From Yuukianura sp. NJ FZ-2021 (Eukaryota), in NCBI GenBank assembly GCA_046563655.1, contig CM102283.1, positions 1,178,001 to 1,242,000 on the forward strand: 64,000 nt of DNA, written 5' to 3'. Of this stretch, positions 10,344 through 60,627 are shown piece after piece (positions within the stretch are counted from its first letter, which is position 1; every line of letters starts with the position of its first letter). The position numbers were made by a program, and so were the translations under genes. Under the pieces are notes generated by a model. The model saw only the letters and a list, made by a program, of their open reading frames with translations. It was not told the origin of the DNA and ran no database searches.

Positions 10344-12226
10344 ATGAACCGTGGACCTTCTTCATCAAAGGGAAATCCTAGCCGTTCTTCTATAGCCGAA
10401 ATTAACAGAAGAAGATCATTTGGAGAGAATAACATTAATGCTGGAAGACTACGTGAATTTCCATGGATTTCAATCGACAAGTTCTATGGAGAGCATCTAC
10501 AAGCAACGATTTTCATTTTATCACATTGCCATACAGGTAACATCATCACATTCATTTTGTTTGGAATTCTACAATTTGTACGCTTGTAGTTTAAAATTTT
10601 GATTGTTCATGTCATTGTTGTTTATAGATCACATGGTGGGTCTGGATGAAGAAGAATTTTGGAATAAGTTAAACGAACCTGGAGTTCACTTGTACCTGCA
10701 CAGAATTACACCGGTGTTATTACCACTGTTCCAAGGCTATTTGCATGGAGAAGAGGGAATCCGGATGCTCCTGGAGAAGGGGAAAATCATTCCGCTGGAT
10801 ATCAACAGACCAGTTGATATTCGTGAACCGACAACAGGAACTGTAGTAAAAATGACTCTTTTGTCAGCGGGCCATTGTCCAGGATCAGTCATGTACGAAC
10901 GAGTGGTGACGTTTTCTCTTATACCCTTAATGGCAGTCTCATTTTTTTCAAATTACTGATTTGTGATTTAGGTTTCAATTCGAGTTTGACCAGCAATGCA
11001 TTTTGCACACTGGAGACTGTCGGGTCACTGTTAAGGACCTGAAGGCAATGGATTCTCTTCACTTCATTAATCGCTCAACGAATGGAACCGTCCAAAAAAC
11101 ACTTAAGCCCATAAGTCACCTGTATATTGACACAACCTTTTGCTCATCGCGTTCGCAACACGTAAGTTGCCCACCATCAGTGTGTTCAGTGTCGTTTCGA
11201 ATCTGAATGGAGGGTGTATTTTAATGGTTTTGAAGTCAGACGTGGAGACGTTGTTTTTAGTTTCCAGGAAGAGTAGATGCTGTGGAACGACTAATAGAAA
11301 TGGTGGAAACTTGGTTGAACCAGTCACGTAATAATCATGTCAACTTAATATTTGCAGGTGAGATAATTTTCTTGTCAATTTCATTACTTGAACTATAAAA
11401 ATAGTTATTTGATGTGATGTGAAAAAGAAAATTGTGTTTTACAGCTCGGTTTGCCCACGAGTTTGTTTTGCACGAATGCTACAAAAAGTTTGGAATCCAA
11501 TACCACGTGAATCCGCAACGATACGAAGCTTATCGACGCATTCCGGACTTATCCTTGGCAGTTACGCTTAATCCGAATTCAAGGTTCCATTTGTGTGAGA
11601 GGGAGTCGGTTAGTGCGACAGTTTTAGTTTCTGGATCAGTCGGTTATTAAGATTTTGTAGTATTTTCTTTTCTACTTCCTTAGCCATGTTTAGTCAATCT
11701 GATGAATGGCAGACCTCGCGGGAAGATTCTTCGAATCAAACTTTCGTCGTTGTGGTACATGAAGAATAGGAACGGACTCGGACCTTCTTGTGCTATAAAG
11801 CAGAACGAAGAAAAGAACGTGATCACCATTTGCTATGCAATGCATTCTTCACTGGACGAAATCAGTGCTATGATCGATTATCTGAAACCCAAAGTCGTTA
11901 CGCCGTTGGTTCTTCCTAAAGGAATGTCACGGAAGGAGGTATAAAATCAGGAAGTCAAATTAATTTCTTTCCCGGAATTAATTGACATTTTTATTTATAA
12001 TTTTATTTAGTTAAAATCGGAGTTACGGCGGAATGCCTGGGGAAATTATGTCTACGAGGACTACGAGAAAGGAATCGACAGCGAAACGATTTTGACGGTT
12101 AAGCGGCCAGTGGCAGTGACCAAACCAATGCCGGAGGATCAATTGCCGCCATCTTGTGAACCAGAACGAAAACGGACTAAACGACAGCTTCGCTGGACTC
12201 CTTCACCTTCTCCTCCACCTTCGTAA
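10344..12226 (+). CDS. DCLRE1C: Artemis / DNA cross-link repair 1C (MBL/beta-CASP nuclease)
   Basis: GRLREFPWISIDKF, SHCHT-DHMVGL, AGHCPGSVM, LHTGDCR, HLYIDTTFC and CYAMHSS. The last exon is 12011-12226. Confidence 0.88.
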
Positions 12227-13132
12227 CCTTACTATAACCAAAGTCATGAAGATCAATTATTTCCGGTTAGAATATACTTGATTACTGATTATTTTCCGTT
12301 TTCTAGTTTCATCTTAATATGAGCATTTGCTTGTACTTTGAAACAAGGAAAAGTTTTTTGTTTTGTTTTTTAGCTTTTAGGTAACAACCGTATGTACTGC
12401 CACTGGTTAGTGAACTAATTTACCAGTAAATCATGCTGGTGTAACCTAACAGTGTTTTATAAGCTGGGGTGTAGTAATTTATTTGAAGTTTAGTGCAGTT
12501 TTTTTATTTTGCTTTTGCATCTTGATTTCTTTGAAATATTGCTGGTGTGTAACTTTTTTTTTGTCAAGGTTTTGCTTACGAAAGTTTTAGTTTTTAGCAG
12601 TTTGATGGACGCTTCGGTTTCATGCAAACTTTGGATGGAACTGTAACGAAGATGACCAACGACTATTAGATTGCGTAATGCAGGAGAAGATGTTATATGA
12701 ATCAAGATAACACACAACTTAAGATTGGTCATTTTAATCTGCATGGCTTGTAGTTTCTTATTCAGCGTGGACTGTGGAGAAATTGTGGTCGTAAACGCAT
12801 TTTTAGCTCACCGTTTTCTGATATTTTTCCCAAAGAAACTTGAAATTTTTAGTCTTTTTTAACCTTTGGTCGGTTAACTCTAAAATTTTTGTTGAAATAG
12901 AGTTGATGGACTGACTGGACTGTTCATTCTTTCACCGCGTCTCATCATATCAACATCCAAGATTGGAAAAATTACACAAGGTTAACTAACCAACAGGTAA
13001 GGCTCTTCCTAATGGATTTTTATTAAAGTTGATTTATTTTGCTAAATTCATAATGTTTAGAAGTAGAATATGTGGGTTTTGTGCAAATATACAACAGCTC
13101 TTTTTTTATTGTTTGCAGAGTTGTGATCCATC

Positions 13133-15439
13133 ATGGACATCGTTTTTATTAAAAAGTTGTGCCTCCGTGTGTCATTGACCTCAACTTCTAAAGCAACGTG
13201 TCAACCAGTCCTTGTCTCCGTGGTCGCTCCTACCGACATACGAGAAGCCGCAGAAACAGACGACGTGAACCTCACTGTTGACTATGCTAAGCTAAGTGCT
13301 GAAATTACAGGAAGATGCGACGACAAATCATTTCCGACGTTATTAGATCTCGTCAAAGCTATCAGTGATCTTTGTCCTCCTGGAGTAACGATTGAAGCCG
13401 AACAAACTAGAGGTCACTACCGAGCGGGGTCAATTGGACTTGGACTGAGGAATGTTAAAAAGTCAAACTCCGACAACTATGAGCAGCAAGTACAACATGT
13501 TATCCAAGACATCAGAGTGTGTACCATCATCGGAGTAAATCCAGAAGAGCGATTTCAGAAGCAGTTCGTCGTGGTTGATGTCAAGTTCGGAGAAACGGAT
13601 TCCAGTATCTCCGAAATCGTTGATTTCGTTGCAGAGTTAGTCGAGTCTTCCAATTTCTTTACCGTCGAAGCTCTAGCTCATCGAATTGCATCACGAGTTC
13701 AGGATGTTTTTCAAGTTAAAGGAGATATCAAGGTGAATGTCACCAAACCGGATGCTATTACGTTTGCAGAGGGCGTTGGAGTGAGGGTGAACAGAAAGGA
13801 ACATGAAACATCGCTTTCGAAACCGAAGAGAGTTGTGGCTATAGAACCTCCATGTTGTGCCGTGGCAGGTGGCATACATTGCCTTTGGATCCAACATTGA
13901 ACCGCGTGTCGACTTCATTTCCAGAGCATTGAAACGAATTCACGATAATGAAAGAATCAAAGTAATGGACACAAGTTTCATGTACGAGTCACTCCCAATG
14001 TACTTCCTGGAGCAAGAATGTTTTTACAACGGAGTCGCCAAAGTTCTAACGACGTGGAACCAGTTTGAACTTCTACAAGCTTTGAAACAGATCGAAGTCG
14101 AAGTTGGGCGGGAGAATCGGTTCGAAAATGGGCCCAGGGAAATTGACTTGGATATTCTATATTATGTCAATGGTTATGGTGATGGTCCTGTTAGTACCGA
14201 TGCATTGACTATCCCACATCCTAGGATTCGCGAACGCGAATTCGTATTACGGCCACTCATAGAGTAAGTTTCAATTTCAGACCACTTTTTCATTTTATTA
14301 TTTGTTGTTAATTTGTATTTCCTTGGATTTGTTAGATATTAGGATTTGTAAAATATTTTATACAATTTTATATTTTATATTCATTTTATATTTATATTGA
14401 TTTTATTGAGTTATTTTATAAAATTGGGTTCTATATTGATAAAATAATTATTGTGTTTTGTTTTTCTAGTTTGCAGGACAGTTTCATGGAGGAGGATGTG
14501 GGAGCCAACCCAACTCTGATGCTGAAATCTCTAATGTCAAAGGGGCCATCGACTGTACAGAAGGTTCTTCCACTTTGGTCTCCGCAGCATCCTGAACCGC
14601 GCCAGCTCAAATGGAATTCAAAGACGTTCATCATGGGCATTCTGAACATGTCTCCAGACAGTTTTTCGGAACCTGGAATTACAAACGCTGAAAGAGCAGC
14701 GGAGGCTGCGCTGAAAATGGTGGCTGATGGAGTTGACTTGATTGACATCGGAGCAGTGTCGAGGAGTCCTGGACGCACAGAGTCCATGTCAACTCGAGAT
14801 GAAATTGCAGCGTTGACGTCCGTCATCAAGCTTCTGCGCGCCAAAAACGTCAAAGTGCCAATTTCAGTTGATGTGTTCAAGGCCGAAGTAGCGGAAGCAG
14901 CTATAAGAGCAGGGGCGGACATCATCAACGACGTTGGCATGGCGGTTCGTGACCCAGAAATGATTGAAGTTGCTGCCAAGTTGGGAGTTCCCATTGTCTT
15001 TATGCACACTCGCGGAAGTCCGTCGGACATACACAACTACACTGAGTACGACAATGACGACGTCGTAGATGGAGTCATCTCAGAGTTAAATCAAGTCGTC
15101 GAGAAGGCTATTACAGCGGGAATTTTCCGGTGGAACATTATTCTCGACCCGGGAATCGGTTTTGCCAAGACTGGAGAACAGAATTTGGAAATTTTGAAGA
15201 ACTTGAAAAAATTCAAGTCACCGGATTCTCCAGTTCGTGGATTTCCGCTGCTGATTGGTTGTTCCAGAAAGAAGTTCATTGGCACACTCACGGACGTTGA
15301 GGATCCGCTTCTGCGCGGTCCGGGAACCATGGCCTCTACTGCAGCATCGATTTGTGAAGGCGCTGATATCATACGAGTCCACGATGTATTAGAAAATATA
15401 CAAGTAGCGAAGTTTGCCGACGCTTTTTGGAGAAACTAA
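13133..15439 (+). CDS. FOL1: Trifunctional folate synthesis protein copy A (DHNA x2, HPPK, DHPS); intron 14264-14469; apparent +1 frameshift near 13850
   Basis: DHNA motifs TVDY, IGVNPEER, FTVEALA, VTKP. HPPK motifs AYIAFGSN, GPREIDLDIL, IPHPR..EREFVLRPL. DHPS motifs GILNMSPDSFS, IIND, DPGIGFAK, SRK, RVHD. Confidence 0.92.
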
Positions 15440-16248
15440 TTTTTCCAAAGGTAAAATTTGCAGCTATATTTCAAATTTTGATTTTTTTTTTAATCAAATT
15501 TTGATTCTGTTTTTTATATTTTGTGTAGAGACTTGGAGCTGAAAGCGTAAACTTGGATCCTTGGTCTTCGTCTGTAGTAAAACTTAAAGTAGGTTAATAC
15601 TAGAAATCTTGCATAATCCTTAGTATTTCCAATTTTTCCAAATTTCACGTCCCTATCTAAAATTTCCGTATCTAATGATCAAATTTTGGTATGAGGTTAG
15701 CAATGCTAATTAGATGATGCTAACTTTAGCATCATCTATGAAATTCGCTTTCCCGTTTACTCTTTCTTCAAATTAAAAATGAATTGAGTTCGATTCGGTA
15801 ACCTAATTAGTATTCAATCCCAGTAAAATCCCACTAAAGTTATGTTCAATTGCAGTAGTAACTTTACTTTACAGCCCAAATGGTTTTTTGAAGGTGCAAT
15901 TTAATTTAGCTTAAAAATTTAACTACTAAAAGGATGTATTTAGCTCTAAAACAGCAATAAGTATCGAATATCCTACGCTAATATAAATTAGCACTTAATT
16001 TAATTTTTCGCCAATAAAATTTAACGGTCGAAAACTCGAAAAGGTGTTTTATTTTATTTTTTTCAAAAATTATTTAAAAATGAAAATTCTCAACTATTTT
16101 TTCTTTTTAGTTCTTTGGTTTCAAAGGCCGCAGTAACTCAAGTCTTTACAAGTCAAGTCAAGGATTGACAGTATAAATTGATTATTTTTTAGAAAATTAC
16201 TGAAACCACAATAGCTAACACAGGTAATTTTGGAAGTTTTTCATTACG

Positions 16249-17312
16249 TTATTAAGTATCGTCAGATACTTATAGGGATCGTAATGGCCGTCCGTCCGTC
16301 CGTCCGCCGTCCGTCTGTCCGTCCGTCCGTCTGTCCGTCCGTCTGTCCGTCCGTCTGTCCGTCCGACTGTATACTAGCCACAACATCTCTGGAACCGCTG
16401 GACCGATTTTCAATCTGTCTTCACAGATGAACTACACATGGTCCAGGGGTGGACAAGTGGTTTCCGGTTTGACCGGAAGTGGCCAACTTCCGGGTCAAAG
16501 GTCAAGGTCAAGTACATTTTCGACGGAATTTGGAAAAGTTGCCTGTACAAAAGTTGTTCATCTCAATGAGAGGAGCAACTTTTTTGTCGCTGATGCTGAC
16601 CTTCGACGTACGGTTCTAGAGATATAGACGCTGCAAAGTTGCAAAATGGCGTCGCTCATACTACGCGCGTCTATAACTCTGGAACCACTTAACCGATTTT
16701 CAACCTGTCTTCGCAGATGAGCTTCACATGGTAGAGGGGTCACTAATCGGTCTCTGGTTTGAACGGAAGTGGCCAAATTCCGGGTGAAAGGTCAAGGTCA
16801 AGTACATTTTTAAGTATCGTCAGATACTTTCATTCAGAGAAAAATCAGTTTCTGGATTCATCTCAAGTGACCTCTATCGGTGTCAAAGGTGAAGGTTATG
16901 CTCCATTTATATTAGGGAAACGGACGGACAGACTCGGAAGGGGTTTGCGGAAATCCAGCTTTGATGACCTTGAGTGACCTCTAACGTGGTGAAATGTCAA
17001 AGACATTTTTTTTTGTACAAGTTGGGAAACGGATAGACCGATTTGGTAGCGGTTTACGGGGATCCGATTTTGATCACTTCTAGTGACCTCTAACAGGGTC
17101 AAGGCTCAAGGTCCTCTTTTTCTCTATAATTCGGAAAAGGATGGAACGATTTGGAAGTGGTTTCCAGGCATCGCTGTTTGACGACGCGAGGACTAAGATT
17201 TCTGTTTGACCTCTAACAATGTGAGAGATCTAGGTCAACAATATCTCGCGCGGGAACTCTCTATAATTGATCTGACGATACTTAGTTACATATCGTCTTT
17301 GCAAGAAGTTTA
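16249..17312 (+). mobile_element. Helentron-associated (DINE-1/HINE-like) non-autonomous element in the probable 5' UTR intron of FOL1 copy B
   Basis: 5' subTIR aagtatcgtcagat within a hairpin (aagtatc/gatactt), (GTCC/GTCT)n microsatellite at 16288-16365, and 3' subTIR atctgacgatactt at 17270-17283 followed by a short hairpin and T-run. Internal duplication 16385-16510 vs 16675-16810. Confidence 0.8.
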
Positions 17313-17441
17313 TTTTTTCTACTTAAAAGTGAAACTAAATTCTCAAGTCCATTGCTATTGAATTTGGAACCTCTAAATTCTAAAATGTTTCAAATTGATT
17401 CAATAGCATTCTAATTTTTTTGTTTTTCAGAGTCCGGAATC

Positions 17442-19852
17442 ATGGGTATCGTTTTCATTAAGAAATTGTGCCTTAGAGTGTCGCTCACTTCAGACCCGAA
17501 TCCGAAGTATCAACCAATCCAAATCTCCGTATTTGCGCCGTTCGATACTGCTAAAGCAGCAGATGCTGACGATGTTGCTTTTGCCCTTGACTATTCTAAA
17601 CTTGCTGTTGAAATTCAGAGAAGCTGCGACGATAAATCATTTTCGACATTACTAGATCTTGTCAGAACTATCAATGACCTTTGCCCTCCTGGAGCCATGG
17701 TTGAAGCAGAACAAAGTAGGGGTCACTGCAGAGCTGGAACAATCGGACTGCGACTAAAGAATGTTAAAAATCTGAAGGGCTACGAACATCAAGTTGAAAA
17801 TTATATTCAGGACTTACAACTTTGTGCCATCATCGGAATAAACGCAGAAGAACGAATTCAAAAGCAGACTATCGTTGTTGACCTTAAGTTTGGCGAAACT
17901 GATTCCGCTGCTGTATCGGAAATTGCTGATTTCGTTCAAGGTTTTTAATCAAAACAAAAAAAAACATTTTTCTACACAGGTTGTCCAATAACTCCACGGT
18001 CTTAATTTTGTAAAATAATTTGCAAAATTTGCTTCGCAATGCCTTTCTATGGTAATAATTTGTACTATGTAGTGTAATAGGAATTCCTGCAGAAATTGGA
18101 TTGAAGTAAGATTATTGGAAACCCTGAGTTATTGTACAACCTGTTGTAGGAAATACAATTTGGTTGTCAAGAAACCTTGATTTCGTTCCAGATCTGGTGG
18201 AATCTTCTAACTTCTTCACAGTCGAAGCTTTGGCTCACAAAATTGCTGCCCAAGTTCAAGTCGTTTTTGGTCTTAAGGGAGATATTTCTGTCGATGTCAC
18301 TAAACCTAACGCCGTTACATTTGCAAAGGGAGTTGGAGTGACTGTGACACGAACGGATACTGAATCGCTGATACCAAAAATGATTGAGGCTGCAGACGTT
18401 TCGGAAGTTGTGGCTTACATTTCCTTTGGATCCAACATTGAACCGCGTATCGATTTCATTTCCAGAGCTTTAAAACGGATGTCCAGTACTCCAGGCATGA
18501 AACTACTGGACACAAGTTTCATGTACGAGTCACTTCCGATGTACTTTCTGGAACAGGATTTGTATTACAACGGAGTAGCCAAAATTGAAACGACGTTTGA
18601 CCCATTTGAACTACTGCGGGCTATGAAAGAAATTGAAGACGAAATTGGGCGCCAAAAACGTTTCGAAAACGGTCCAAGAGAAATTGACTTGGATATTTTG
18701 TATTATGGGGCTCATCGTGTCAGTAGCGACGAACTGACCATTCCACGTCCAAAAACCTACCAAAGGGAATTTGTGTTGCGACCACTTGTAGAGTAAGTTT
18801 TAATGTCAAAGGTCAAAGGTCACGTTGTAAAATGAATTTCAAATTTTAACGTTAATTTTAAATGAAATTTGGTAAATTTTAGTTTGCAAGATGCGTACAT
18901 GGAAAATGTGATCGGGGTCAACCCAACTGTGATGCTGAAATCTCTTATGTCAAAGGGGCCATCGACTGTCCAGAAAGTTCTTCCACTTTGGTCTCCGCAG
19001 CATCCTGAATCGCGTCAACTCAAATGGAATTCAAAGACGTTCATCATGGGCATTCTGAACATGTCTCCAGACAGTTTTTCAGAACCTGGAATCACAAACG
19101 CTGAAAAAGCAGCGAAGGCTGCGCTGAAAATGGTGGCTGATGGAGTTGACTTGATTGACATCGGAGCTGTGTCGAGGAGTCCTGGACGAACAGAGTCCAT
19201 GTCCACTCGGGATGAAATTGCAGCGTTGACATCCGTCGTCAAACTTCTGCGCGCCAAAAACGTCAAAGTGCCAATTTCAGTTGATGTGTTCAAGGCCGAA
19301 GTTGCGGAAGCAGCAATAAGAGCAGGGGCGGACATTATCAATGACGTTGGCATGGCAGTTCGTGATCCAGGAATGATTCAAGTTGCAGCAAGTTTAGGCG
19401 TGCCGATTATTCTAAAGCACATGAGAGGAAGTCCAATGAACATGCGGAATTTAACGGAGTATGACAACGACGACGTCGTAGGCGTAGTCATCTCAGAGTT
19501 AAATCAGGCAGTCGAAAAACTAATTGCTGCTGGAGTATTTCGGTGGAACATTATCGTGGACCCGGGAATTAGTGGTCCGAAGACGGCATTACAGGATTTA
19601 CAAATTTTACAAAATCTGAACAAGTTTAGTTCGCTGGAGTCTCCACTTCGCGGAGTTCCGTTGCTTGTTGGTTGTTCCAGAAAGTCGGTAATTGGTGCTA
19701 TAACGGGAGTTGAAGATCCACTTTTGCGTGATCCAGGAACACTGGCTTCCACGGCAGCATCAATTTCTCAAGGTGCGGATATCATTCGTGTCCATAATGT
19801 TGAGCAAAACATGCAAGCTGTAAAGTTTGCAGACACATTTTGGCGAAAATAG
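17442..19852 (+). CDS. FOL1: Trifunctional folate synthesis protein copy B; exons 17442-17940, 18192-18792, 18883-19852
   Basis: Collinear with copy A and fully open after removal of two GT-AG introns. Several motif substitutions are present (IPRP, DPGISGPK, RVHN). Confidence 0.92.
17937..18179 (+). mobile_element. 243-bp hAT-like MITE forming FOL1-B intron 1
   Basis: Termini caaggttt...aaaccttg, perfect 8-bp TSD atttcgtt (17929-17936 and 18180-18187), and inner IR acaggttgt.caataact. A homologous copy lies at ~22995-23190. Confidence 0.85.
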
Positions 19853-20120
19853 TTTAATAAGTTTATATATTCTAGTGGTAAAAAATTGCGATTATCAGAA
19901 AACTTGTAAGTTAAACAAAAATTAAATTTTGCCGAGACTGGAAGGCAAAAGCCGAACGTAGTTGCTGCTTTTTTCCTTCTCAATAATAAAAGTAGAATTT
20001 TATATGGAAAACTTTTGCATCTTTATTTTTCATAACTAGTATACATAAATTTCACTTTCAACATTTTCAACATAACAACTTTTACCATTTTGAAAATATT
20101 TTCATAATTTATAAAGTTTG

Positions 20121-21343
20121 CTAGGAGGTTACCGTAATCTGAGAAGATCTCTTGCGCGTTAGCCTTCTTACCTTGTGAAGAGCAACTGAACCGTTCCAGT
20201 AAGCTGAAATTTTGAAATATAAAATTGGAATGCAAAAAAATGCGAGTTTTGCAAAAAAAAAATGAAAGGGAAAGAGAAATTTTCTTACAGTCGTAGCAAG
20301 GATTTTCACTAATAACTCTTGGAATGGTTTCTTTATCCCACGCATCATGTTCTTCAAGGTTCCCACCTAAAGATTTTGGTAGGATTTCTGCTCCAATATT
20401 TTTAGCAAGGGATTCCATATTTCTATGGACATGAACTCGCTTCTGAAGTTTTTTCGACAACAATTTCACAGCTACTTTGTAGACTGGCCAGAATATAAGA
20501 GGAACGTTCACGAAGTGGAATCCTGCCGCCTTCATTGGAAACATTTCCTACTCAGAAAACAAATTTTTTTAGCATTCCTTAAAATTAGTCATATTGTAGA
20601 AACTAAAACTTTAGTCATGTTCATGCGCAGAACGCATTTGGCACAACTCTTGGTTTACTAAAAGGTAAGGTGTATCAATGATAATTAAGTTGGTTTGTTA
20701 ATTACAGTGAAGAGTTTGACGGTAAAGATGAGTGCTTGAGGCGTGAATTGGCGAGCAATGGAAAATGGGAATCCAGACAAGTCTGCGATAAAGACGAATC
20801 CACTGAGTTGGACGGAAACGTCTTGAAAGTATTCTTCCGTGAAAAATGAGTATGCCAACTGTAGCTGCTGGAGAGAACCAATTTTAGTGTCCCAGTTTGT
20901 CGTACTGAAGAAAGCAACAATTGCCCCGTCCCTCCTGTTTTTGAGTATGCGCATAACGTCCATGTCGTAGATAGGGATGAAGTCACACGGTCGAATTCGC
21001 TCCACGAGGTGGAGGTTGACAAAGATGCTGTCGTAGTACTTTTCAATGGCCACGACGGTGGCATGTGGACAGTACTTTTTACAGCGCAGGAACTTCACTA
21101 AGAATCCACTGTCAGTTTTTACCGGCAGAGGGAATTTCTTTTCTACAAATAATTACAAAATACTCAATTTTGAATATTTTTTTTTTAATTTTTGCAGTAA
21201 CCAAGTAAAAAATGGCGAAAATTTTTGGAATTACCTAAAAGAATTTGTCGCACAATTTCGAGCAATTGTGGAATTGTATGCTCCTTTGACGTATTTGCTG
21301 CATCTGCTGCTGGAGAGGGGAAAAAGCATTGCTCCATTGTCAT
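20121..21343 (-). CDS. CRAL-TRIO / alpha-tocopherol transfer protein-like, copy 1 (4 exons)
   Basis: D.GFLVKFLRCKKY, Q.SGFVFIADLSGF, FP.K..GFHFVNVP, KKLQKRVHVH and ILPKSLGG. Confidence 0.88.
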
Positions 21344-22505
21344 TTCGAAAAAATTATTTGAAAAAAAAATTGAACAATTTTGTTTAAAAGGTTTTCGGCG
21401 ATTCCTTGACCAGGCAAAATCCAACTGCTGGAAAATGATTTGGAAAAACGGATTTTATTAAAGAAAACTTTCTCACAGTTTAAAAGTTTAAAACGAACAT
21501 GTTTTAAAAGATTGGCGCAAATCCTTCCGAAAGGACTGCAAGCATGGGAAAACATTTTTATATAAAAAATTACGAGTTAATTAAACTCAAATAAGCTAAT
21601 AAATTTCGAACATGTTGAAATAAAGCATTCACGTAAATTTACAAAACGGAACTATGAAATTATGAGATTATACAGATAGAGCGGTATTTTCCGCTTTTGC
21701 GATTTTATTTATTCCTCTTGGTTTTAACTTTTTCCTGCAATGTGAAATTCTGGCTCAAAATTTTGATTTTTCAACTCTGATGGGAACATTTGGCTTCAGG
21801 GTTAACGCAAAATTTATCTTTGAAAAGATTAACGTAACCGTGTGACCGCTGCAGGTCAGTTCTGTGGACTTGTTAAAAAATGTACCGGAATCTTCGTTGG
21901 GGCATTGTAGACGTCATAACTTAACTTTGACTTAAGCAACTCTTTGTGTGCATAAAAAGTAAAACCGAAAATGTTTTTTGAGTTATTGAAGTTTTGCAAA
22001 AATTCAAATGTCTTTCTATATCTTTTTGGGAAGTCAACATTTTCCAGTCAAAAAAACGAAAATACTAAGTACCGAAACGCGTTATGAATGTTCGTTTACA
22101 TTGGTTCAAATTCGATTTTAATATGCGATAAAAGTATTCTTAAAAATGAATGAAAATTAAACATCTAAATCTCGAAAGTCGGAGTTAATAGTTGTGAATA
22201 CGTTTTATTCAGAACTCATTCTTGAAAAATTAAACCTCGAAAACACATTTTCCAAGATACCATTTCTACATTACCACGTTTAATTGTATGTATTGTGCAA
22301 TTTCCTTTACTTTGTTTTCGAGATGAACAAAAAATTGGAAAATTTAAATAATGGACAGCAGAGTTAGTATTCACAAAAAGTCTTGTATATCTTTACTATT
22401 TTCATTAGGGTGTATAATTTCACTTTCAAAATTTTCATTTTGGCAACCGATCATTTCAAAAATATTTTCGTAATTTAGAAGAGTTTTCTATGCGGTCATC
22501 ATAAT

Positions 22506-23904
22506 CTATGAAGATCTCTTGCGACGCATTCTTCTCGCTCGATGAAAACCAACGGAACCGTTCCAGTAAACTAAAATTTTGACACAAAGTATATTGGAAT
22601 GCCTTTGGAAGAAACAAAAATTGTGTTTAATATATCAAATTTTGGAAAATTGCTTACAGTCATAGCATCGATTTTGATTAATAACTTTTGGAACAATTTC
22701 CTCATCCCAAGCTTCATGTTCTTCAAGGTTCCCGCCTAAAGATTTCGGTAGGATTTCTGCTCCGAGGCTTTTTGCAAGGGATTCCATGTCTTTATGGATG
22801 TGAACTCGCTTCTGAATTTTTTCGGCAGTAATTTCACACCTACTTTGTAAACTGGCCAAAATATAAGAGGTACGTTCACGAAGTGGAATCCTCCCGCCTT
22901 TATTGGAAACATTTCCTGCACAGAAAATAAAATTTTTGTAACATTCTTAAACGTAAAGTCCAAGTTGAGGAATATTCTTCGTAAACGAAGGGTACGTAAA
23001 CAAAAAAGTTTTTTGTACACAAGGATATCCAATAACTCTACGTTTTTAAATTTGTTAAATAATTTGCAAAATTTTCATCGCCAAGTCATGTAATAGGAAT
23101 TGGTGCAGAGTTTGAAATAAGATTATTCAAAACCCTTAGTTATTGGGCAACCTGTTGTAGGAAATACAATTTGGTTGTCAAGGAACCTTGATTCTTGCAT
23201 ACAAACTAAAACCTAAGTAATATGCGCAGAAGGCATATTTGACACAACTGCGGCTTAACTGAAGCTTAGGACATAGGATAAAATTATTTTGTTAATTACA
23301 GTGAGGAGTTTCATGTAAAACTTGACTGCTTGAGGTGTGAATTCGCGAGCAATGGAGAATGAGAATCCAGACACGTCCGAGATGCTGACGAATCCACTGA
23401 ATTGGACGGATACATCCTGAAGGATTTCCTCCATGAAGAAGGAGTAGGCCAACTGTAACTGCTGAAGGGGACCAATTTTAGTGTCCCAGTTTGCCGTACT
23501 GAACAAGGCAACTCTTGCACCGTCCTTCTTATGTTTGAGCGTACGTAGAACGTCCATGTTGTAGATGGGCAAAAAATCACTTGGACGAATTCCCTCCATG
23601 AGTCGTAGGTTGACGAAGATGCTGTTGTAATAGTTTTCAATGGCAACCACGGTAGCATGTGGACAGTACTTTTTACAGCGCAAAAACTTCAGTAGGAATC
23701 CATTGTCGGTTTTCAGTGGTAGAGGAAAATTCTTTTCTACAAAAAGTTATGATATTATGAGTTTAGAAATTTTTTTTAAAAAAAAAATGATAGTTTTTGA
23801 AATTTCAATATCAGCCAAGTAAAAAAGACAAAAAAGTTGTGGATACCTAAAAGAATTTGTCGCACAGTTTCGAGCAATTCCGGTATTTTCTGTTCCATTG
23901 ACAT
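22506..23904 (-). pseudogene. CRAL-TRIO copy 2, 5'-truncated, with a frameshift
   Basis: Exon 1 lacks its N-terminal part and the conserved upstream block. An A-run near 22820 is one base short, which may be a sequencing error, and the stop is 6 codons early. Confidence 0.7.
22995..23190 (+). mobile_element. Second, more decayed copy of the MITE that forms FOL1-B intron 1
   Basis: Aligns by eye with 17952-18179, ending caacctgttgtaggaaatacaatttggttgtcaag.aaccttg. The paralogous intron near 32905 shows the empty site. Confidence 0.8.
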
Positions 23905-24697
23905 AATTATAATAATAATATAATATAATTTGGGAATCCACTCAAAAGTCGCACAGTTTGCAACTCAATTCTGAGCGTATAGTCAGAAATAGAGAAGGGA
24001 ATGGAAAAATGGGCGATTTACTCTGACTTCTGAACTTGCGTCAAAGACAGATCCAAAGTATTTTGAGTCAGAATCAGCTCTTCCCGACCTCCCTATTAAT
24101 CCGGTTTTGATTAATTTCTAATTCAAATGAAAAATAACCAGAGTTTTAATTGACCTTGACAACTTTTAGTTTTAATGAGACTAGTGGCAAGACTTGTTCC
24201 GAGTGCTGAAGATTACAGAGAAGAAAAGACACGCTCTAATATATGTAACCGCGCATGGGACGTTTTTAAACAGCCCAAGGTTTTTTTTTTCGCATGCAAG
24301 GAGATTTTCTTTTAAACTGCAATTGAAAAAGTTTCTTAATCTAAAGCCAAAGAAGGGGATTGAGTCTTTTGGAAAACCCAAGAATTGAAAGTCATTGAAT
24401 TGTATCAACATTCGGTGACCTTGGTGGATGACCACCATAGTCTGGATATACAACTAAACATTATTTTTATTCAGTTTAATTCAATTTAGATATTTAAATA
24501 AGCATGAAACATACACTTAGAAAATAAAGGTGAAGGCTGAAATTTAAAGTTAAAATCTAAGCTTTAGACTGAATTGAATTCGAAAAATGAAGCAGCTTTG
24601 TATCTTCACTACTTTCATAATACGTATTAACTTCAGTTTCAAAATTCCCAATTTGACAACAGCATCTCAAAAATATTTTCATAATTTGTAAAGTTTG

Positions 24698-25905
24698 CTA
24701 TGAGGAGATCATCATCTGTGAAGATCTCTTGCGCGTCAGTCTTCTCGATCGATGCAGAGCCACGGAACCGTTCCAGTAAGCTAAAATGTCGGAATAAATT
24801 AAAGGGGAACGTTATTGGAAGAATAAAGTTTGTGTTTTAAAAAAATCCAGTTCTGAAAAATTTCTTACAGTCATAGCACGGATTTTGATTAATAACTCTT
24901 GGAACAATTTCCTCATCCCAAGCATCATGTTCTTCAAGGTTCCCGCCTAAAGATTTCGGTAGGATTTCTTGTCCAAGGCTTTTTGCAAGGGATTCCATGT
25001 CTCTATGGATGTGAACTCGACTCTGTAGTTTTTTCGGTAACAATTTCACACCTACCTTGTATATTGGCCAAAATATAAGAGGTACGTTCACGAAGTGGAA
25101 TCCGCCTGCTTTCACTGGAAACATTTCCTAAGCAGAAAGTAAATTTTTTCTAACATTCCTTAAATTAATGTTCCATTTTAGGAATATTGCGCAGAACGTA
25201 TTTGTCTCAATTCCTGCGAAATGTGAATTTGACTTAATCAACTAATCTTAGAAATTTCATTATTTTGTTAATTACAATGATGAGTTTGATGCAAAACTTG
25301 AGTGCCTGAGGCGTGAATTCGCGAGCAATGGCGAGTGAGAATCCAGACAAGTCTGAGATGGTGGCGAATCCACTGAGTTGGACAGATACGTCCTGGAAGT
25401 ATTCTTCCGCGATAAAGAAGTAGGCTAACTGTAACTGCTGGAGTGAACTAATTTTAGTGTCCCAATTTGACATACTGAAGTAGGCAACTGTTGCCCCGTC
25501 CTTTTTGTGTTTGAGCATGCGCATAACGTCCATGTCGTAAATGGGCAAGAAGTCACTTGGTCGAATTCCCTCCACAAGTCGGAGGTTGATGAAGATGTTG
25601 TTGTAGTAGTTTTCAATGGCCTCGACTGTTGCATGTGGGCAGTACTTTTTACAGCGCAGGAACTTCACTAGAAATCCACTGTCAGTTTTTACCGGCAGTG
25701 GGAACTTTTTTTCTAAAAAAAAGTCATGAAGTTAGAAAACTAAAAGACTTTAAAATTTTCACAGTAATGAAGTAAAAAAAAAGGCGAAAAAGTTAGGAAT
25801 ACCAAGAAGAGTTTGTCGCACTATGTCGAGCAATTCTGGAATTTTCTGCTCCTTTGACATAATTGCTGCATCTGCCGCCGGAGAAGAGGAAAAGCACTGC
25901 TCCAT
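24698..25905 (-). CDS. CRAL-TRIO / alpha-TTP-like, copy 3
   Basis: Same motifs and 4-exon structure as copy 1, with frames intact. Confidence 0.88.
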
Positions 25906-27149
25906 TCTCAATTAGAAAAAAATTCAAAATAAAAAAAAGAACAAATTTAAAAAAAAAATCGAGTTTTTCCTTAACTACGCAAAATCCAACTGCTGGAAAA
26001 GGATGTAGGAAGGCGGATTTTATTGAAGAAAAATTTCTCACAATTTAAAAGCGTCTTTCTTTAAAAAATTGGCGCAAATCCTTCCGAAAAGATTGCAATG
26101 ATGGGAAAACATTCTTATTTCAAAAATTATGAGTTAATTAAACTGAAATAAGCTAATTAATCTAATCTAAATAAAATGGACAAATTTTTTTAAAAATTGG
26201 TTTAAGGTTTCCCTTGACTAGGCAAAATTCAACTGCTGGAAAAGGGTTTGGGAATGTGGAATTTATTGAAGAAAAATTTCTCACAGTTGAAAAGTTTAAA
26301 ACAGTCATTTTTTAAAAGATTGGCGCAAATCCTTGCGGAAGGATTGCAATGTTGGGAAAACATTCTTATATCAAAAATTACGAGTTAAATAAACTCAAAT
26401 AAGCTAATTAATTCCGAACATGTTAAAATAAAGCATTAACGTAAATGGAATCATGAGATTATTCAGATAAAACCGTATTTTCCGCTTCTGGAATTTTATT
26501 TCTCTTTCCTGAGATGTGAAATTCTGGTTCAAAATTTTTGATTCCTCAACTTTGATGGGAACATTTGACATCAAGGTCAACGCAAAATTTGTCCTTGGAA
26601 TGATTGACGTAACCATGTGACTGCTGCAGGTCAGTTCTGTGGCCTTGTTAAAAATGTACCGGAATCTTCGTTGACGCATTGTGGAAGCCATAAATAACTT
26701 TGACTTAACCAACTCTTTGCAACCACAAAATGTTCTTTGAGTATGGCTTTGCGGATATTAAAATATCTTTTGATATCTTTTTGGGAAATCAACATTTTCT
26801 CATCGTCCAAACTAAATCGCGTTCTAAATTTTCGTTCGCCTTGGTGCAAAGTCGAACTTAAAATGAAATAAAAATGTTTTGAAAAAAAATGAATGAAAAT
26901 TAAGCACGTAAATCCCGTAAATCAAATGTTGTTTTCAGAACTCATTCTGTAAAAATGAAACCTCTAAAACATTTTTCCCAATATACCATTTCTAGATAAT
27001 CACGTTTAATTGTGTTTATTGTGCAATTCCGTGTACCTTGTTCTAAAGATTAAGAAAAACTGGAAATTTTAAATTCCGGACAGTAGAACTAGCAAGCAGA
27101 AAAAAGTCTTGTATCTTTATTATTTTCATAACTAGTGTACATCTTTTAG

Positions 27150-27472
27150 CATGGATGTAATTGTAGTAGTTTTCAATGGCCATGACGGTGGCATGTAGAC
27201 AGTACTTTTTACTGCGCAGGAACTTCACTAGGAATCCACTATCAGTTTTGACCGGTAGAGTAAATGATATTACCAATTTAAACATAGCTATTAATTAAAT
27301 TTTAACTAAATGGTAGCTTTTAAAATTTCCTCTGCAATGAAGTAAAAAAATGCAAAAAGTTGGGGATACCTAAAAGAATTTGTCGCACCATTTCGAGCAA
27401 TTCTGGTATTTTCTGTTACTTGGACGTAACTGCTGGATCTGCCGCCGGAAGAAGAGAATTGGAATGTTCCAT
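27150..27472 (-). pseudogene. CRAL-TRIO copy 4 remnant
   Basis: Exon 1 has an in-frame TAA. Exon 2 stops after IENYYNY and joins directly to 3' flank sequence, indicating a large internal deletion. Confidence 0.85.
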
Positions 27473-30187
27473 TGTCCTTTAGAGAGACAATTTCAAAAGA
27501 TTTTTGTTAGATTTTTAATTTTTAATTTTTAATTAGACTTTTATTTTAATTTTAAACTTTTAATTTAATTATGAAATTTTAATTAAATAATTTTTAATAA
27601 ATTTTTTAAAAAGTGTTTTTGAGTTATTCTTGACTAGAAAAATCCAAAATGTTTGGAAAAAAATTCGCTTGGGTGGATTTTATTGAAAAAAAAATTTCTC
27701 ACATTACGCGTCACCAATTAAAACCTTGGCCTGCGCAAATGCTTCCCAAATGGTTGTGATGATGGGAAATCATTTTTATATCCAAGGTTACGATTTAATT
27801 ACACTCAACTAAGCTAATTACTAAAATGTTGGAGTGTTACGTCATTCCTTTAGCGAACTTTTGTGTGAAATGTGAACTTATAGTTCGAAAGTTTTGATGT
27901 CTCACGTTCGACGCCGACATATGGCATCATAATGAACTAAAAAGTCCTTGGAAATACTGACGTATGACTGTGTGACCGCTGCATGTCACTTTTATGATAC
28001 TGTGTGACCTTGAGCAAAAAAATGCTCCAGGAGCATCATTGACGAAGACGTAGTTTCGTTTATATTACGCAACTCTTTGTGAGTTAAGCGTCATCCAATG
28101 AACAAAATAAAAAGAAAAGGCAAGGTTTTTTGAAATTGAAAAATTGCTTTAGGAAATCGGCGTTTTTTTCGTGCCAACTAGAAAACGGAAGAGTAACAAA
28201 ACGCTTTTGAATGTTGGTTTATTTTGGTTTTTTCAATTTTGAGTCTAACTATAAATATAAACAAATGAAAAGACTTGAAAATCCGTAAATCAGAATTAAT
28301 GTTAGAAAATGCGGTTTCTTAAGAATGCTTATCCAAGTTTTTGCTCTTATATATAAATACTTAATGTCTGTCTAAAAACGTAAGGCAGTTTGTTTACATA
28401 AATTGTCGCAGATTTTGCAGTTGTTGCCATACGTTACTGCAAGGTTGAATGCAATCTGCGCTACATCATTTGTAACCAGTAATCATCCGAATATAAATCA
28501 CTAAAAATAATATCGGAATCATAGGAATCATCCCCAATTTTAGTATTATTATTGGTTGATGAATGCTGTTCCGCATAAACTCTCCACTTCCTCCAGGGTT
28601 GACTTTGGTTTAAAGAAACCAATAGTTTGTCCAAATCAATTATTGAGTAAAACATGGTTTAAATCAATAATCAAGTGTTCTATTTTCTTCTTTTTTTAAA
28701 TAAAAACCGTCCTAACACAAATATACAACACAAAACAAAAGAAATTGGAAATCTCCAGGATTTTTCGGGAAAATAGTGAAGCAACCTGTCGATATCACTG
28801 TCTCCAATTCCTATTGCTGTATTAATCTGTTAGTTTGTTTCAGATTAAAACAGAATTAAAAGAGAAGATTATAAAATTTTGTAAATTTCCTGTGATATAA
28901 TTTTAAATATTTCTATTCTTTGCACTTTGCTATACTCATTTTAGTAATTAACACAACAACGAAATGGAATTAATTAACTAAAAGGAAATAGTGAAGCAGA
29001 AAACCGCAACGGTAAAATAAGCGCCAAAGATTTCAGAAATGATACTGCAGTGATTTACGTTTAAAAATATCTGACGCATGCGCCGGTGTATACATGAGGT
29101 TGCGCACGCGCAACCCAACCCGCGCCGAAAAAATCAAAAATATACGATTGTGAAAATAAATAAACTGCCTTGCGTTTTTAGACAGACATTAATTTATTTT
29201 TTCAGTTTTACCAAGCCAAGTGTGATTGTGTGCGCTGTCCAATTTCCAGCACTTTGATATAAAGATGAACCACAAACGTAAGGTCATCTATGGTTGCAAA
29301 TATGAATAAATCCGGTCGTTACCCGGAGTATACGAAAGTAGTGAAGCACTTAACCTTTGACCCGGAAGGAGTTGACCCACCGGGATGGTATTCAATAGTG
29401 AACTTCCGTCCGACCCACGGTGTTGAGACTGGTGAAAACAGATCCCGCAAATGCTTAGCCGTTTTGGAGATAATTCCCGCCATCGGCAAGACAGACAGAC
29501 AAGGTCAAGCCAATAAGTAGCTTCTCTACTTAATAAAAAAAAAGAACCGATAATAAATTCCAATTCTGGAAAAAAAAAATTAGTGAAAAAACACACGAAC
29601 AAAATATTAATCTACTTGAGTAATATAATTATTAAAAAATAAACTGTAAGAGTTAAGTGAGTAAAGATGGCTTTTAGATTACAAATGGTAGGTAGACTCC
29701 TTCGCTATTCCAAAAAAAATAAGTAGTACGCAAAAAAAAAAATTCAAAATACTAATCTATCTGCATAATATCAACAAAAATATGACAATTATAAACTATA
29801 GAATTAAAGCTGCTTTGAGAAGGTTTTTTAAAAGTAAAATTTAAAGTGAAAAATCATATTTCTAAAGGCGAAAGTCTGTTATTTTCGCAAAACCTACAAT
29901 TGGAGCTATATTAAATTCAACAGTCCGTCAGCGACATTTGCGTATGACGGCGAAAGTCTGAATCTAAACAGAATTGAAGAAATTAAAAAATAAAGAAAAT
30001 GTAGGTAAAACTGCAGCATAAGCATGAAATTGATTGGAAAAATTGAAAAATTTCTTTACTACTTCCATAACTAGTGTACATAATTTCACTTTCAATATAG
30101 TCATTTGACAACCCAGTTTTTTAAAAACACTTTCATAATTTACAAAGTTTGCTATGAGGTCATCACCAAGTCTGAGGGTCCCTTGTA

Positions 30188-31396
30188 CTAAATCAGTGTT
30201 CTCGTTCGATGAAGAGGAACGGAGCCGTTCCAGTTAGCTACAATTTTGAAATAAAGTAAATTGGAATGTAATTGGCAAAAATGTGATTTTTTTAGAATCC
30301 AATTTTGGAAGTTTCCTTACAGTCGTAACACGGATTTTGCTTAATAACTCTTGGAATAATTTCCTCATCCCAAGCATCATGTTCTTCAAGGTTCCCGCCT
30401 AAAGATTTCGGTAGGATGTCTGGTCCAAGGCTTTTTGCAAGGGATTCCATGTCTCTATGGATGTGAAGTCGACTCTGAATTTTCTTCGGCAGTAATTTCA
30501 CACCAAGTTTGTAAATTGGCCAAAATACAAGAGGTACATTCACGAAGTGCAGTCCGCCCACCTTAATTGGATACATGCCCTGCGCAAAAATGTTTTTTTT
30601 TCTAAACTTCCTTACATTAAAGGGTATTTGTTGCGTAAACTATAACAAACTAAAACGAAAGTGTTCAGTAGCAGGAATGTTTGACTTACTTCCTGCTTAA
30701 CCGAATTAATTTAAGTGTCAATTCACGCTTTTAGCACATAGGATTAATTATTTTGTGAATTACAATGGTGTATTTGATGTAAAGCTTGAGTGTGTGAGGC
30801 GTGAATTCGCGAGCAATGGCGAATGAGAATCCAGACAAGTCTGAGATGGTGACAAATCCACTGAATTGGACGGATACGTCCTGAAAGTATTCTTCCATTA
30901 CAAAGGAGTATGCTAACTGTAAATGCTGGAGGGAACCAGTTTTGGTGTCCCAGTTTGATGTACTGAAGTAAGCAACTGTTGCGCCGGCCTTCTTGTGTTT
31001 AAGTATGCGCATGATTTCCATGTCGTAGATAGGCAAGAAGTCACTTGGCCGAATTCCCTCCACAAGTCGGAGGTTAATGAAGATGTTGTTGTAGTAGTTT
31101 TCGATGGCCACCACGGTGGCATGTGGACAGTACTTTTTACAGCGCAGGAACTTCACTAGAAATCCACTGTCAGTTTTTACCGGCAGTGGGAACTTCTTTT
31201 CTACAAAAAGTCATGAAGTTAGAAAATAATAGACTTTAAAATTTTCACCGTAACGAAGTAAAAAAAAGGCGGAAAAGTTAGGAATACCAAGAAGAGTTTG
31301 TCGCACTATGTCGAGCAATTCTGGAATTTTCTGCTCCTTTGACATTATTGCTGCATCTGCCGCCGGAGAAGAAGAAAAGCATTGCTCCATTGTCAT
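30188..31396 (-). CDS. CRAL-TRIO / alpha-TTP-like, copy 5
   Basis: Same motifs and exons, with a shortened C-terminal tail. Confidence 0.85.
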
Positions 31397-32419
31397 TTAT
31401 AAAATCAATTTTTAAAAAAAAATGGACAAATTTAAAAAAAAAGATGTTTTCAGGTTCCCCTTGACTAGGCAAAATCCAACTGCTGGAAAAAGGTTTGGGA
31501 AGGTAGATTTTATTGAAGAAAAATTTCTCACAGTTGAAAAGTTTAAAACCGTCATTTTTTAAAAGATTGGCGCAAATCCTTCCGGAAGAATTGCAATGAT
31601 GGGAAAACATTCTTATATAAAAAAAAAATTACGAGTTAATTAAACTGGAATAAGCTAATTAATTCCAAACATGTTAAAATAAAGCATAACGTAAATGGAA
31701 TTATGAGATTTTTTAGATAAAACCGTATTTTACACTTTTGGAATTTTATTTCTCTTGGTTAATATTTTCCTGAAATGGTCAGTTCGCTGCAGGTCAGTTC
31801 TGTGGCCTTGTTAAAAAATTGTACCGGAATCTTCGTTGAGGCATTGTGGAAGCCATAATTAACTTTGACTTAAGCAACTCTTTGCGTACAAAAAAGCAAA
31901 ACACAAAATGTTTTTTGAGTAAGGCTTTGCGGATATTAAAATATCTTTTTATATCTTTTTGGGAAATCAACATTTTCTCCTTGTCCCAACTAAAAAACTA
32001 AAAAGTAACAAAACGCGTTTTAAATGTTCGTTTACTTTGGTGCAATGTCGAACTTAAGATGAAATGAAAATTTTTTTTTAAATGAATGAAAATTAAACAC
32101 GTAAATCCCGTAAATCAGATTTTATGTTTGTGTATATGTTTTATTCACAACGCTTTCTGTAAAAATGAAACCTCGAAAACATCTTTTCCAATACACCATT
32201 TCTACATAATCACGTTTAATTGTATTCGTATACTTTGTTCTAAAGAATAACAAAAAAGAGGAAAATTTAAATTCCGGAAAGTAGAACCTGCAATGCAAAC
32301 AGAAGAAAGCCTTGTATCTTTACTATTTTCATAACTATAGTGTACATCATTTCACTTTCCAAATTTTCAGTTTGCCTACCTATTATTCCAAAAATATTTT
32401 CATAATTTATACAAGTTTT

Positions 32420-33663
32420 CTATGCGGCCATCATAATCTGTGAAGATCTCTTTCGACTCATTCTTCTCGCTCGATGAAGAGCAGCAGAACCGTTCCAGTA
32501 AACTAAATTTTGACACAAAGTAAATTGTAATGTCGTCTTTTAGTAGAAAAAAATGTGTTTAAAATATTTAATTTTTGAAATTTTCTTACAGTCATAGCAC
32601 GGATTTTGATTAATAACGCTTGGAACAATTTCCTCATCCCACGCTTCATGTTCTTCAAGGTTCCCGCCTAAAGATTTCGGTAGAATTTCTGGTCCAAGAC
32701 TTTTTGCAAGGGATTCCATGTCTCTATGGATGTGAATTCGACTTTGAAGTTTTTTCGACAATAGTTTCACCCCTACTTTGTAAATGGGCCAAAATATAAG
32801 AGGTACATTCACGAAGTGGAACGCGCGGGCCTTCATTGGAAACATTTCCTGCGCAACAGATAAAATGCTTTTTAACATTCTTAAACGTAGAGTGTCTTAG
32901 TCCCGGAATATTCTTGCATACAAAATCAAACCCTTCAGTAATGCCTAGAACGCGTATTTGACACAATTGCGGCTTAGCTAAAGCGATTAGGATCAAATTA
33001 AAATTATTTTGTTAATTACAATGAGGAGTTTCATGTAAAACTTGATTGCCTGCGGCGTGAATTGGCGAGCAATGGCGAATGAGAATCCAGACAAGTCGGA
33101 GATGCTGACGAATCCACTGATTTGGACGGATACGTCCTGGAGGATTTCTTCCATAAAAAAGGAGTAGGCCAACTGTAACTGTTGTAGGGGACCAATTTTA
33201 GTGTCCCAATTTGGCGTACTGAAGAAGGCAATTCTTGCCCCGTCCTTCTTGTATTTGAGCATGCGCAGAACGTCCATGTTGTAGATGGGCATGAAGTCAC
33301 AGGGTCGAATTCCCTCCATGAGTCGGAGGTTAACGAAGATACTGTTGTAATAGTTTTCAATAGCCTCAACGGTGGCATGTGGACAGTACTTTTTGCAGCG
33401 CAGGAACTTCACTAAGAATCCACTGTCAGTTTTTACTGTCAGAGGAAATTTCTTTTCTACAAGAAGTAACGAAATTATGAATGTAAAAAATTAAAAAAAA
33501 AGTTGAAATTTTTAAATAAGCGAAGTTAAAAACACGAAAAAGTTGGGGATGTACCTAACAGAATTTGTCGGACAATTTGAAGCAACTCCGGTATTTTCTG
33601 TTCGTTTGACATGATTGCTGGATCTGCCCCCAGAGGTGGAAAAAAACACTGTTCCATTTTCAT
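32420..33663 (-). CDS. CRAL-TRIO / alpha-TTP-like, copy 6
   Basis: Same motifs and exons, with frames intact. Confidence 0.88.
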
Positions 33664-39204: not shown

Positions 39205-39441
39205 TGTTATTTGGAATTTGGAAAACAATTTTTAAAAAAATGCCAACTTTTTTCGAATTACGAACTTCGGATTTTCGAATACGAAAATTGGAATTGTTTG
39301 AAAAAAATTGGTTAATGTGGACTTTATTGACTAAAAACTTCTCACAGTACGCGTCGTTTTTTAAAACAGTGGTGGGAATACTCTCTAAAAGATTACGACG
39401 ATTAGAAAACATTTTTATATCCAAAACTTACGAGTTTATTA

Positions 39442-54457: not shown

Positions 54458-54531
54458 GTCTGAAAAGCAGAAAAAAGATAAAATGAATAAAAGAATTGAA
54501 AACTAACTTAACTAACTAAATGCGCGCATGG

Positions 54532-60572: not shown

Positions 60573-60627
60573 AGTTAGGACCCAATTTCAAAAAAAAGTT
60601 TAGAAAAAAAAAGTTCGAACCGTTCCC

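Follow-up and report, generated by a model that had tools for sequence, protein, structure and literature searches.

The origin of new introns is still debated, and clean single events, which need visible transposon borders, a target duplication, a pre-existing acceptor and an uninterrupted sister gene, are rare. Does the genome of Yuukianura sp. NJ FZ-2021 hold one? In the 64,000-nt stretch of DNA analysed here (contig CM102283.1 of assembly GCA_046563655.1, positions 1,178,001 to 1,242,000; below, the window), two tandem genes, copies A and B, carry the three folate-synthesis domains FolB, HPPK and DHPS, and a 243-bp inverted-repeat element interrupts the FolB-coding part of copy B. We found that the insertion itself is certain: its target duplication, inverted ends and repeat family are clearly beyond chance. 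We further predict, tentatively and a little short of calling it probable, that the element is spliced out exactly as nucleotides 17941–18191, as an earlier reading of the sequence alone had proposed (below, the sequence-only reading).

The element and the exon that it entered

The two copies of ATTTCGTT that flank the element in copy B are identical (8/8), and the first 10 nt of the element match the reverse complement of its last 10 nt at 9/10 positions. The repeat finder reported a perfect inverted pair of 9 nt (17936–17944/18172–18180), and a subterminal pair of 19 nt is 95% identical (17976–17994/18126–18144). As RNA, the element folds into a single long hairpin (–66.1 kcal/mol versus –43.4 ± 4.2 in shuffles, z = –5.45), and 0/200 shuffles fold as well. 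No open reading frame of at least 60 amino acids lies within it. Direct reading of the sequence bore out all coordinates given earlier for the duplication, the 243-bp CAAGG...CCTTG element, the GT and AG positions and the 251-nt segment between them (Table 1). Copy A had been described as lacking the insertion and carrying ATTTCGTT once, and this too was confirmed; the string that spans its empty site, GATTTCGTTGCAGAGTTA, had no match in 100 shuffles. Excision of the element together with one copy of the duplication from B yields ...DFVPDLVE....

Among the six sequencing runs found, X1 and X2 represent a single sample with a possible relation to the source of the assembly, X5 carries another organism label, and X6, a metatranscriptome (share 0.09), is the sole RNA run. 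Summed contig depth over the element is 40351 in X1, 18709 in X2 and 1004 in X5, versus ~156–300, 209–273 and ~5 in the respective neighbouring bins, which places the element ~80–200 times above its flanks. The 3′ border is marked by 232 contigs that diverge from the window exactly behind position 18179 (105 in X1, 87 in X2 and 40 in X5); no 5′ border was seen among the contig matches listed. With inverted ends, a target duplication, a high copy number and a small non-coding body, the element is a miniature inverted-repeat transposable element (MITE), i.e. a non-autonomous DNA transposon of high copy number. In another set of contigs the match to the element starts only at 18101 (54 in X1, 39 in X2); many family members therefore keep only the last 79 nt or have internal deletions, like the sister copy in the window (Table 1).

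The 8-bp duplication and the CAAGG ends fit a hAT-like element and agree with the earlier assignment; CAAGG at both ends matches YARNG, which we take to be the hAT end consensus. Target duplications of 8 bp are also possible for the P, Mutator and Merlin superfamilies, and no hAT domain was found in the scanned open reading frames of the window.

The insertion is not fresh. A 694-nt contig of X5 runs from exon 1 into the element (17441–18147; 49 differences, 13 gap letters), a 544-nt contig of X5 covers the element end, the duplication and exon 2 (18150–18693; 34 differences, 0 gaps), and a contig of X1 over 17538–18032 shows 25 differences. Since the X5 contigs cross both the exon 1/element and the element/exon 2 joints, the insertion predates ~6% divergence and is common to a differently labelled organism, the genomes being 5–7% apart here. 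No empty-site allele was found in the DNA runs among the contig joints listed (15/76). The insertion is younger than the old duplication that produced A and B.

An exhaustive profile search with the N-terminus of copy A (571 matches) gave as the closest relative found the protein P0215 (45% identity over residues 1–223, E = 4.8e–42), which is uninterrupted at the insertion site. P0215 is alone in its cluster, and its source, a 3151-nt Logan contig, may be genomic or complementary DNA. The lack of an interruption at this point in both copy A and P0215 supports the view that the element hit a formerly continuous exon. The reading frame of P0215 is open through FolB into HPPK, where the conserved ENGPREIDLDILYY motif is read in a shifted frame (MAHAKLIWTFY), apparently owing to a frameshift or a sequencing error.

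Table 1. Coordinates of the features in the window (position 1 is its first letter)
Feature	Position	Strand	Basis or remark
Copy A, FolB-HPPK-DHPS gene without the element	13133..15439	+	Pfam FolB, HPPK and Pterin_bind on 3 open frames
Empty site in copy A, one ATTTCGTT followed by GCAG	13622..13639	+	GATTTCGTTGCAGAGTTA, lone exact match in the window
34-nt GT..AG segment in copy A, absent from B	13835..13868	+	breaks the frame unless removed
Intron 2, copy A	14264..14469	+	GTAAGT..TAG; joined frame open
Copy B, FolB-HPPK-DHPS gene with the element	17442..19852	+	Pfam on 3 exons
Target-site duplication, first copy (ATTTCGTT), coding	17929..17936	+	sequence read directly
Inverted-repeat element (MITE), 243 bp, CAAGG...CCTTG	17937..18179	+	sequence, repeat finder, fold, read contigs
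Candidate intron, 251 nt	17941..18191	+	donor CAAG/GTTTTT in inverted end; acceptor TTTCGTTCCAG in host DNA
In-frame TAA that would end the protein if the element is retained	17946..17948	+	frame 17415..17948; two codons into the element
Alternative in-frame acceptor TGTTGTAG	18148..18149	+	209-nt intron, 14 extra residues
Target-site duplication, second copy	18180..18187	+	would form part of the acceptor pyrimidine tract
Intron 2, copy B	18793..18882	+	GTAAGT..TAG
Sister element copy, diverged	22999..23190	+	inside older intron of a minus-strand CRAL-TRIO gene

Would splicing remove the element exactly?

On the reading that we prefer, the fungal-type gene was duplicated in tandem long ago, and a non-autonomous transposon later inserted into the FolB-coding exon of B. 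Splicing would run from the AG/GT of the element (CAAG/GT, carried by both of its ends) to a host AG that pre-existed 4 nt beyond the target site, within GCAG in copy A and CCAG in copy B; the element would thus supply the donor and co-opt the acceptor, with the second copy of the duplication acting as pyrimidine tract. The GT lies at 17941–17942, 4 nt inside the element, and the AG at 18190–18191 (ccAG/at), 4 nt past the second duplication, and the predicted length equals 243 nt of element plus 8 nt of duplication. Removal of these 251 nt would put CAAG from the element in place of the host's CCAG, base for base, alter one residue, putatively Pro to Gln, and keep the full three-domain protein. 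Pairing of the inverted ends into the hairpin would place the donor near the acceptor.

Joining 17442–17940, 18192–18792 and 18883–19852 gives 689 open codons with one terminal stop and all three Pfam domains, and the predicted spliced product of B reads ...ADFVQDLVESS... versus ...VDFVAELVESS... in copy A. Thirteen local GT..AG pairs are in frame and stop-free, and zero net length change is found only for 17941–18191. The acceptor TTTCGTTCCAG resembles the other acceptors in the window and is as good as they are.

Several results weigh against exact splicing. They favour instead a reading that we consider somewhat unlikely, in which the element disabled B, a young pseudogene tolerated since A performs the function, and the GT..AG geometry arose by coincidence. 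When element insertions into the coding sequences of A and B were simulated, 757/7942 (9.5%) allowed a same-length, stop-free GT..AG removal and 4461/7942 (56%) some in-frame removal within 15 nt. With CAAG/GT at both ends of the element, restoration to the exact length requires no more than a suitably spaced host AG and is therefore not a rare outcome. The exact restoration of the frame stressed in the sequence-only reading therefore holds as a description (the DFVQDLVE versus DFVAELVE junction and the open 689 codons) but is not strongly beyond chance. The donor is also unusual: it reads GTTTTT, versus GTAA in 13/13 other placed donors at five intron positions. These are GTAAGT, GTAAGC, GTAAGC and GTAAAT in the P450 genes (one of the five P450 junctions had no candidate, and the others were picked among several frame-compatible pairs), GTAAGT twice in the FOL gene pair and GTAATT seven times in the CRAL-TRIO genes. 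Moreover, the candidate donor takes part in the terminal stem of the –66 kcal/mol hairpin, where pairing could hide it from U1.

The evolution of copy B points in the same direction. Lineage-specific changes against each of 8 outgroups number 26–42 in B and 12–27 in A. At the 134 columns conserved in at least 7/8 outgroups, B keeps 106 residues and A keeps 111, and conserved catalytic-motif residues kept in A have been lost from B (TIPHP to TIPRP in HPPK; GIGFAK to GISGPK and RVHDV to RVHNV in DHPS). In a DHPS tree the branch of B is 3 times longer than that of A (0.15 versus 0.047). Other samples differ from the window by 5–7% in the exons of B, at least as much as in nearby non-coding DNA; the exons of A differ by 0–0.9% (X1/X2) and 3.8–5.4% (X5), and the intron of A by ~2% (X1/X2). 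The higher divergence of the B exons among samples would fit relaxed constraint on B, whose loss is affordable given an intact-looking tandem paralogue.

Set against a dead copy B are the 523 codons that stay open downstream of the element despite an insertion common across ~6% divergence. Under neutral divergence of 2–3% on this lineage, the probability of such an open frame is ~0.2–9%, a range obtained by assuming between one indel per 8 and one per 20 substitutions; a conversion-like tract in the DHPS exon (see the next section) could help to keep a dead copy open. The 544-nt contig of X5, the differently labelled organism, runs over exon 2 without gaps. The ratio of nonsynonymous to synonymous divergence (dN/dS) between A and B is 0.20 on each side of the element, and the first 15 codons past the junction encode identical protein in the two copies. 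Finally, copy A, which would have to do the work, is itself frame-broken in this assembly.

This last point also limits the use of the empty paralogue as the internal control for which it had been taken. Its uninterrupted site stands, but copy A is an old paralogue, not a recent empty allele, with a synonymous divergence (dS) of ~0.80 between A and B; and with a frame break of its own in this assembly it is not obviously the working copy. The break comes from a 34-nt segment in the FolB-HPPK linker, removal of which realigns A with B (RVVAYIAFGSN versus EVVAYISFGSN). A read contig over 13809–14027 differs from copy A by 13 letters, with 7 gap letters; given these 7, the extra stretch would be 27 bases, i.e. 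whole codons in frame. A micro-intron was judged unlikely because the other introns placed measure 64–453 nt; the better putative explanation is a linker of variable sequence that holds either a frameshifting variant or an error of the assembly. The segment opens with GTGGCTATA, which nearly repeats the following bases, GTGGCATAC.

Four RNA contigs of X6 fall on 13000–20000. One is a close match (19048–19299, 253 nt, 1 difference) and lies in exon 3 of B, far from the junction. It gives a weak hint of transcription only, with DNA carry-over possible.

It is improbable that the element is spliced, alone or as an isoform, to the acceptor TGTTGTAG at 18149, which would add the residues GNTIWLSRNLDFVP to FolB. 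This pair is in frame and stop-free, 18149 is the first AG at the usual distance (~21 nt) below a branch-like CCTGAGT, and the site at 18191 is preceded by two AGs within 43 nt. However, the extra residues would fall in a conserved FolB helix segment, which makes a working aldolase less likely, and the CAG with its T/C-rich run at 18191 is closer to consensus. Very improbable is a dead FolB part with HPPK-DHPS made separately from a start that lies inside the element or beyond it (first Met 18383, MIEAADVSEVVAYISFGSN...): this would account for the open, conserved downstream frame without a weak donor, and two-domain HPPK-DHPS proteins are known (P0004 and P0007), but the 64 codons from the junction to this Met are well conserved with A (dN/dS 0.10 over B residues 151–200), and no promoter evidence turned up, none having been sought.

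Exact splicing thus remains the reading that we tentatively prefer. If 17940/18192 is a true junction, the locus would be a textbook-clear animal example of a transposon-born intron, and it would bear on whether a donor as weak as GTTTTT works when a hairpin joins the intron ends. If the element is retained in RNA, the locus would be no more than a commonplace insertion that disables a redundant copy of the gene.

The gene pair, the sister element and the neighbourhood

Copies A and B have the same order of Pfam domains, namely FolB (dihydroneopterin aldolase, in two stretches), HPPK and Pterin_bind (DHPS). Judged by its sequence, each copy thus has the trifunctional fungal-type FOL1 layout, with the three domains in order in one gene. 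The two products are identical at 499/682 aligned residues, and the position of intron 2, after ...VLRPL(I/V), is common to both genes. A tract of ~100 codons in the DHPS exon (B residues 408–507; 19003–19303 and 14590–14890) stands out with an A/B DNA identity of 95% versus 64–82% elsewhere, and looks like a recent gene conversion between the copies.

The DNA between the copies (16042–17445) ends ~3 bases 5′ of the start codon of B, contains a GTCC-rich tandem stretch and reaches a summed read depth of up to 61,000–91,000 versus ~200. Both copies have an acceptor-like ...TTGCAG or TTTCAG ~11–12 nt 5′ of the ATG, and the repeat block may therefore form part of an intron in the 5′ untranslated region of B.

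As a rule, animals lack this folate-synthesis pathway, and the sequence-only reading regarded the gene as horizontally acquired. Among the long matches that also have all three domains, the best come from Mucoromycota (43–44% identity), and the closest Atlas clusters are FolB families of Ascomycota. Searched against 5.8 billion proteins, the DHPS exon gave 22 matches among longer proteins (best 44%), and exon 2 gave 72 matches among proteins of near length, mostly bacterial-type HPPK (best 53% over 23% of the query, the rest at most 47%); no animal protein was present among these 22 long and 72 near-length matches. In a tree of 22 DHPS rows, A and B fall in a 16-row clade (support 97/97) with fungi, a plant, Dictyostelium and some bacteria, inside which the order is unresolved. 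Searches of JGI metagenomes with the N-terminal 234 residues of copy A gave 300 pattern matches, of which 0 were confirmed, and the A/B alignment of HPPK found three loci at 39–41% identity, too distant to inform. A literature search on springtails, DHPS and horizontal transfer found no paper joining DHPS with springtails among the 15 of 672 listed. Overall, a fungal-type origin by transfer is plausible, in keeping with a fungal-type gene in an animal-like neighbourhood.

That neighbourhood contains two cytochrome P450 genes, a JmjC/KDM8-like gene, a GBP-like gene, a Rab-GDI/REP-like gene and a tetraspanin gene, all of animal type, and the closest named relatives of the P450 products are springtail proteins (47–50% identity), weak evidence for a host that is probably a hexapod-like arthropod. 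An Atlas look-up with a GBP-like open reading frame returned no informative taxa. On the minus strand, a Ty3/gypsy-type retroelement (53864–60587) has an open pol frame of 1639 residues with protease, reverse transcriptase, RNase H and integrase, and the block that holds it has a G+C content of 46–50% versus ~36%. Rfam gave 0 matches in 12000–24000 of the window.

A tandem array of 7–8 CRAL-TRIO (Sec14-like) genes occupies 20000–39500 on the minus strand, in units of ~2.2–2.9 kb. The sister element noted earlier at ~22995–23190 is real (Table 1): it matches element positions 20–243 with 72.9% identity over 225 columns (E = 1.8e–38), while its first ~19 nt and its target duplication are unrecognisable. 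It occupies the intron that separates the large exons, two in number, of CRAL-TRIO gene 2. An intron at this point is common to 7/7 CRAL-TRIO paralogues, with the same GTAATT donor after ACT or ATT, and in unit 2 its excess length is roughly that of one element. Because all seven paralogues have this intron, the sister copy is a passenger in an older intron, not an intron-maker. The same conserved intron is enlarged in unit 7 as well, to 453 nt.

The description of the element as introner-like is thus unsupported at present. One copy is known as an intron candidate, and the sole other copy in the window sits in the older intron, on the other strand relative to its gene. Since both ends read CAAG/GT, an exon copy in either orientation would bring a donor and need only a nearby host AG. 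That the family is an introner family of a land-living, hexapod-like animal, as would follow if many exon copies are spliced, seems to us doubtful at best. If true, such a family would be caught here beside an uninterrupted paralogue, in a fungal-type gene that had to gain introns after its arrival.

Comparison with known systems

The mechanism proposed for copy B, an intron from a transposon insertion, is already known from maize Ds and from introners, and transposon insertion is one of the classical proposed routes of intron creation; copy B would work like such cases if it is spliced at all. The founding case is reportedly the maize Ds (hAT) element that creates an intron, described by Giroux et al. 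There, a non-autonomous element with an 8-bp duplication is reported to lie in an exon and to be removed via signals at or near its ends, which for copy B is a prediction. Maize Ds was reportedly a mutant allele with RNA data; the present candidate comes from sequence, is fixed in two organisms that carry different labels, and belongs to an animal-like genome. In animals, Tc1 is said to be spliced from C. elegans pre-mRNAs (Rushforth and Anderson 1996) and element 412 from Drosophila vermilion (Fridell et al. 1990). These too are exon insertions removable from mRNA via cryptic sites in or near the element, as is predicted here, but their removal is reportedly imprecise and partial and concerns mutant alleles, not fixed gene structures.

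In a 2012 review, 35 intron gains by transposon insertion are counted in Oryza, Drosophila, Oikopleura and Zea, none of them demonstrated in vivo, and an inserted element is said to bring splice sites near its borders or to activate latent ones (PMC3443670). Introners offer another parallel, as families that create introns at scale. According to Gozashti et al. 2022 (PMC9860276) and a review (PMC11282704), some introner families bring the 5′ site and co-opt the 3′ site. The former also describes an Aureococcus family with an 8-bp duplication that leaves 4 bp of the element in the mRNA, and reports introners from only two animal groups, mostly in aquatic species (PMC9860276). The introners of Micromonas, Aureococcus, dinoflagellates and others resemble the present element: they are short DNA transposons, have inverted ends and target duplications and, as is predicted for copy B, bring one splice site and recruit the other. 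They differ in being defined by many copies, each an intron, whereas here one candidate copy is known. The predicted product differs as well: in copy B four element bases would replace four host bases with nothing added, unlike the Aureococcus family with its extra 4 bp.

A gene of foreign origin with transposon-associated intron gain has a counterpart in Cuscuta CYP81Q, in which introns with transposon hallmarks, including those of hAT, were gained after horizontal transfer; the authors state that causality is not established (PMC13591195). The plant case comes with reverse-transcription PCR and expression data, whereas in Yuukianura the target duplication and the uninterrupted paralogue fix the insertion to the base.

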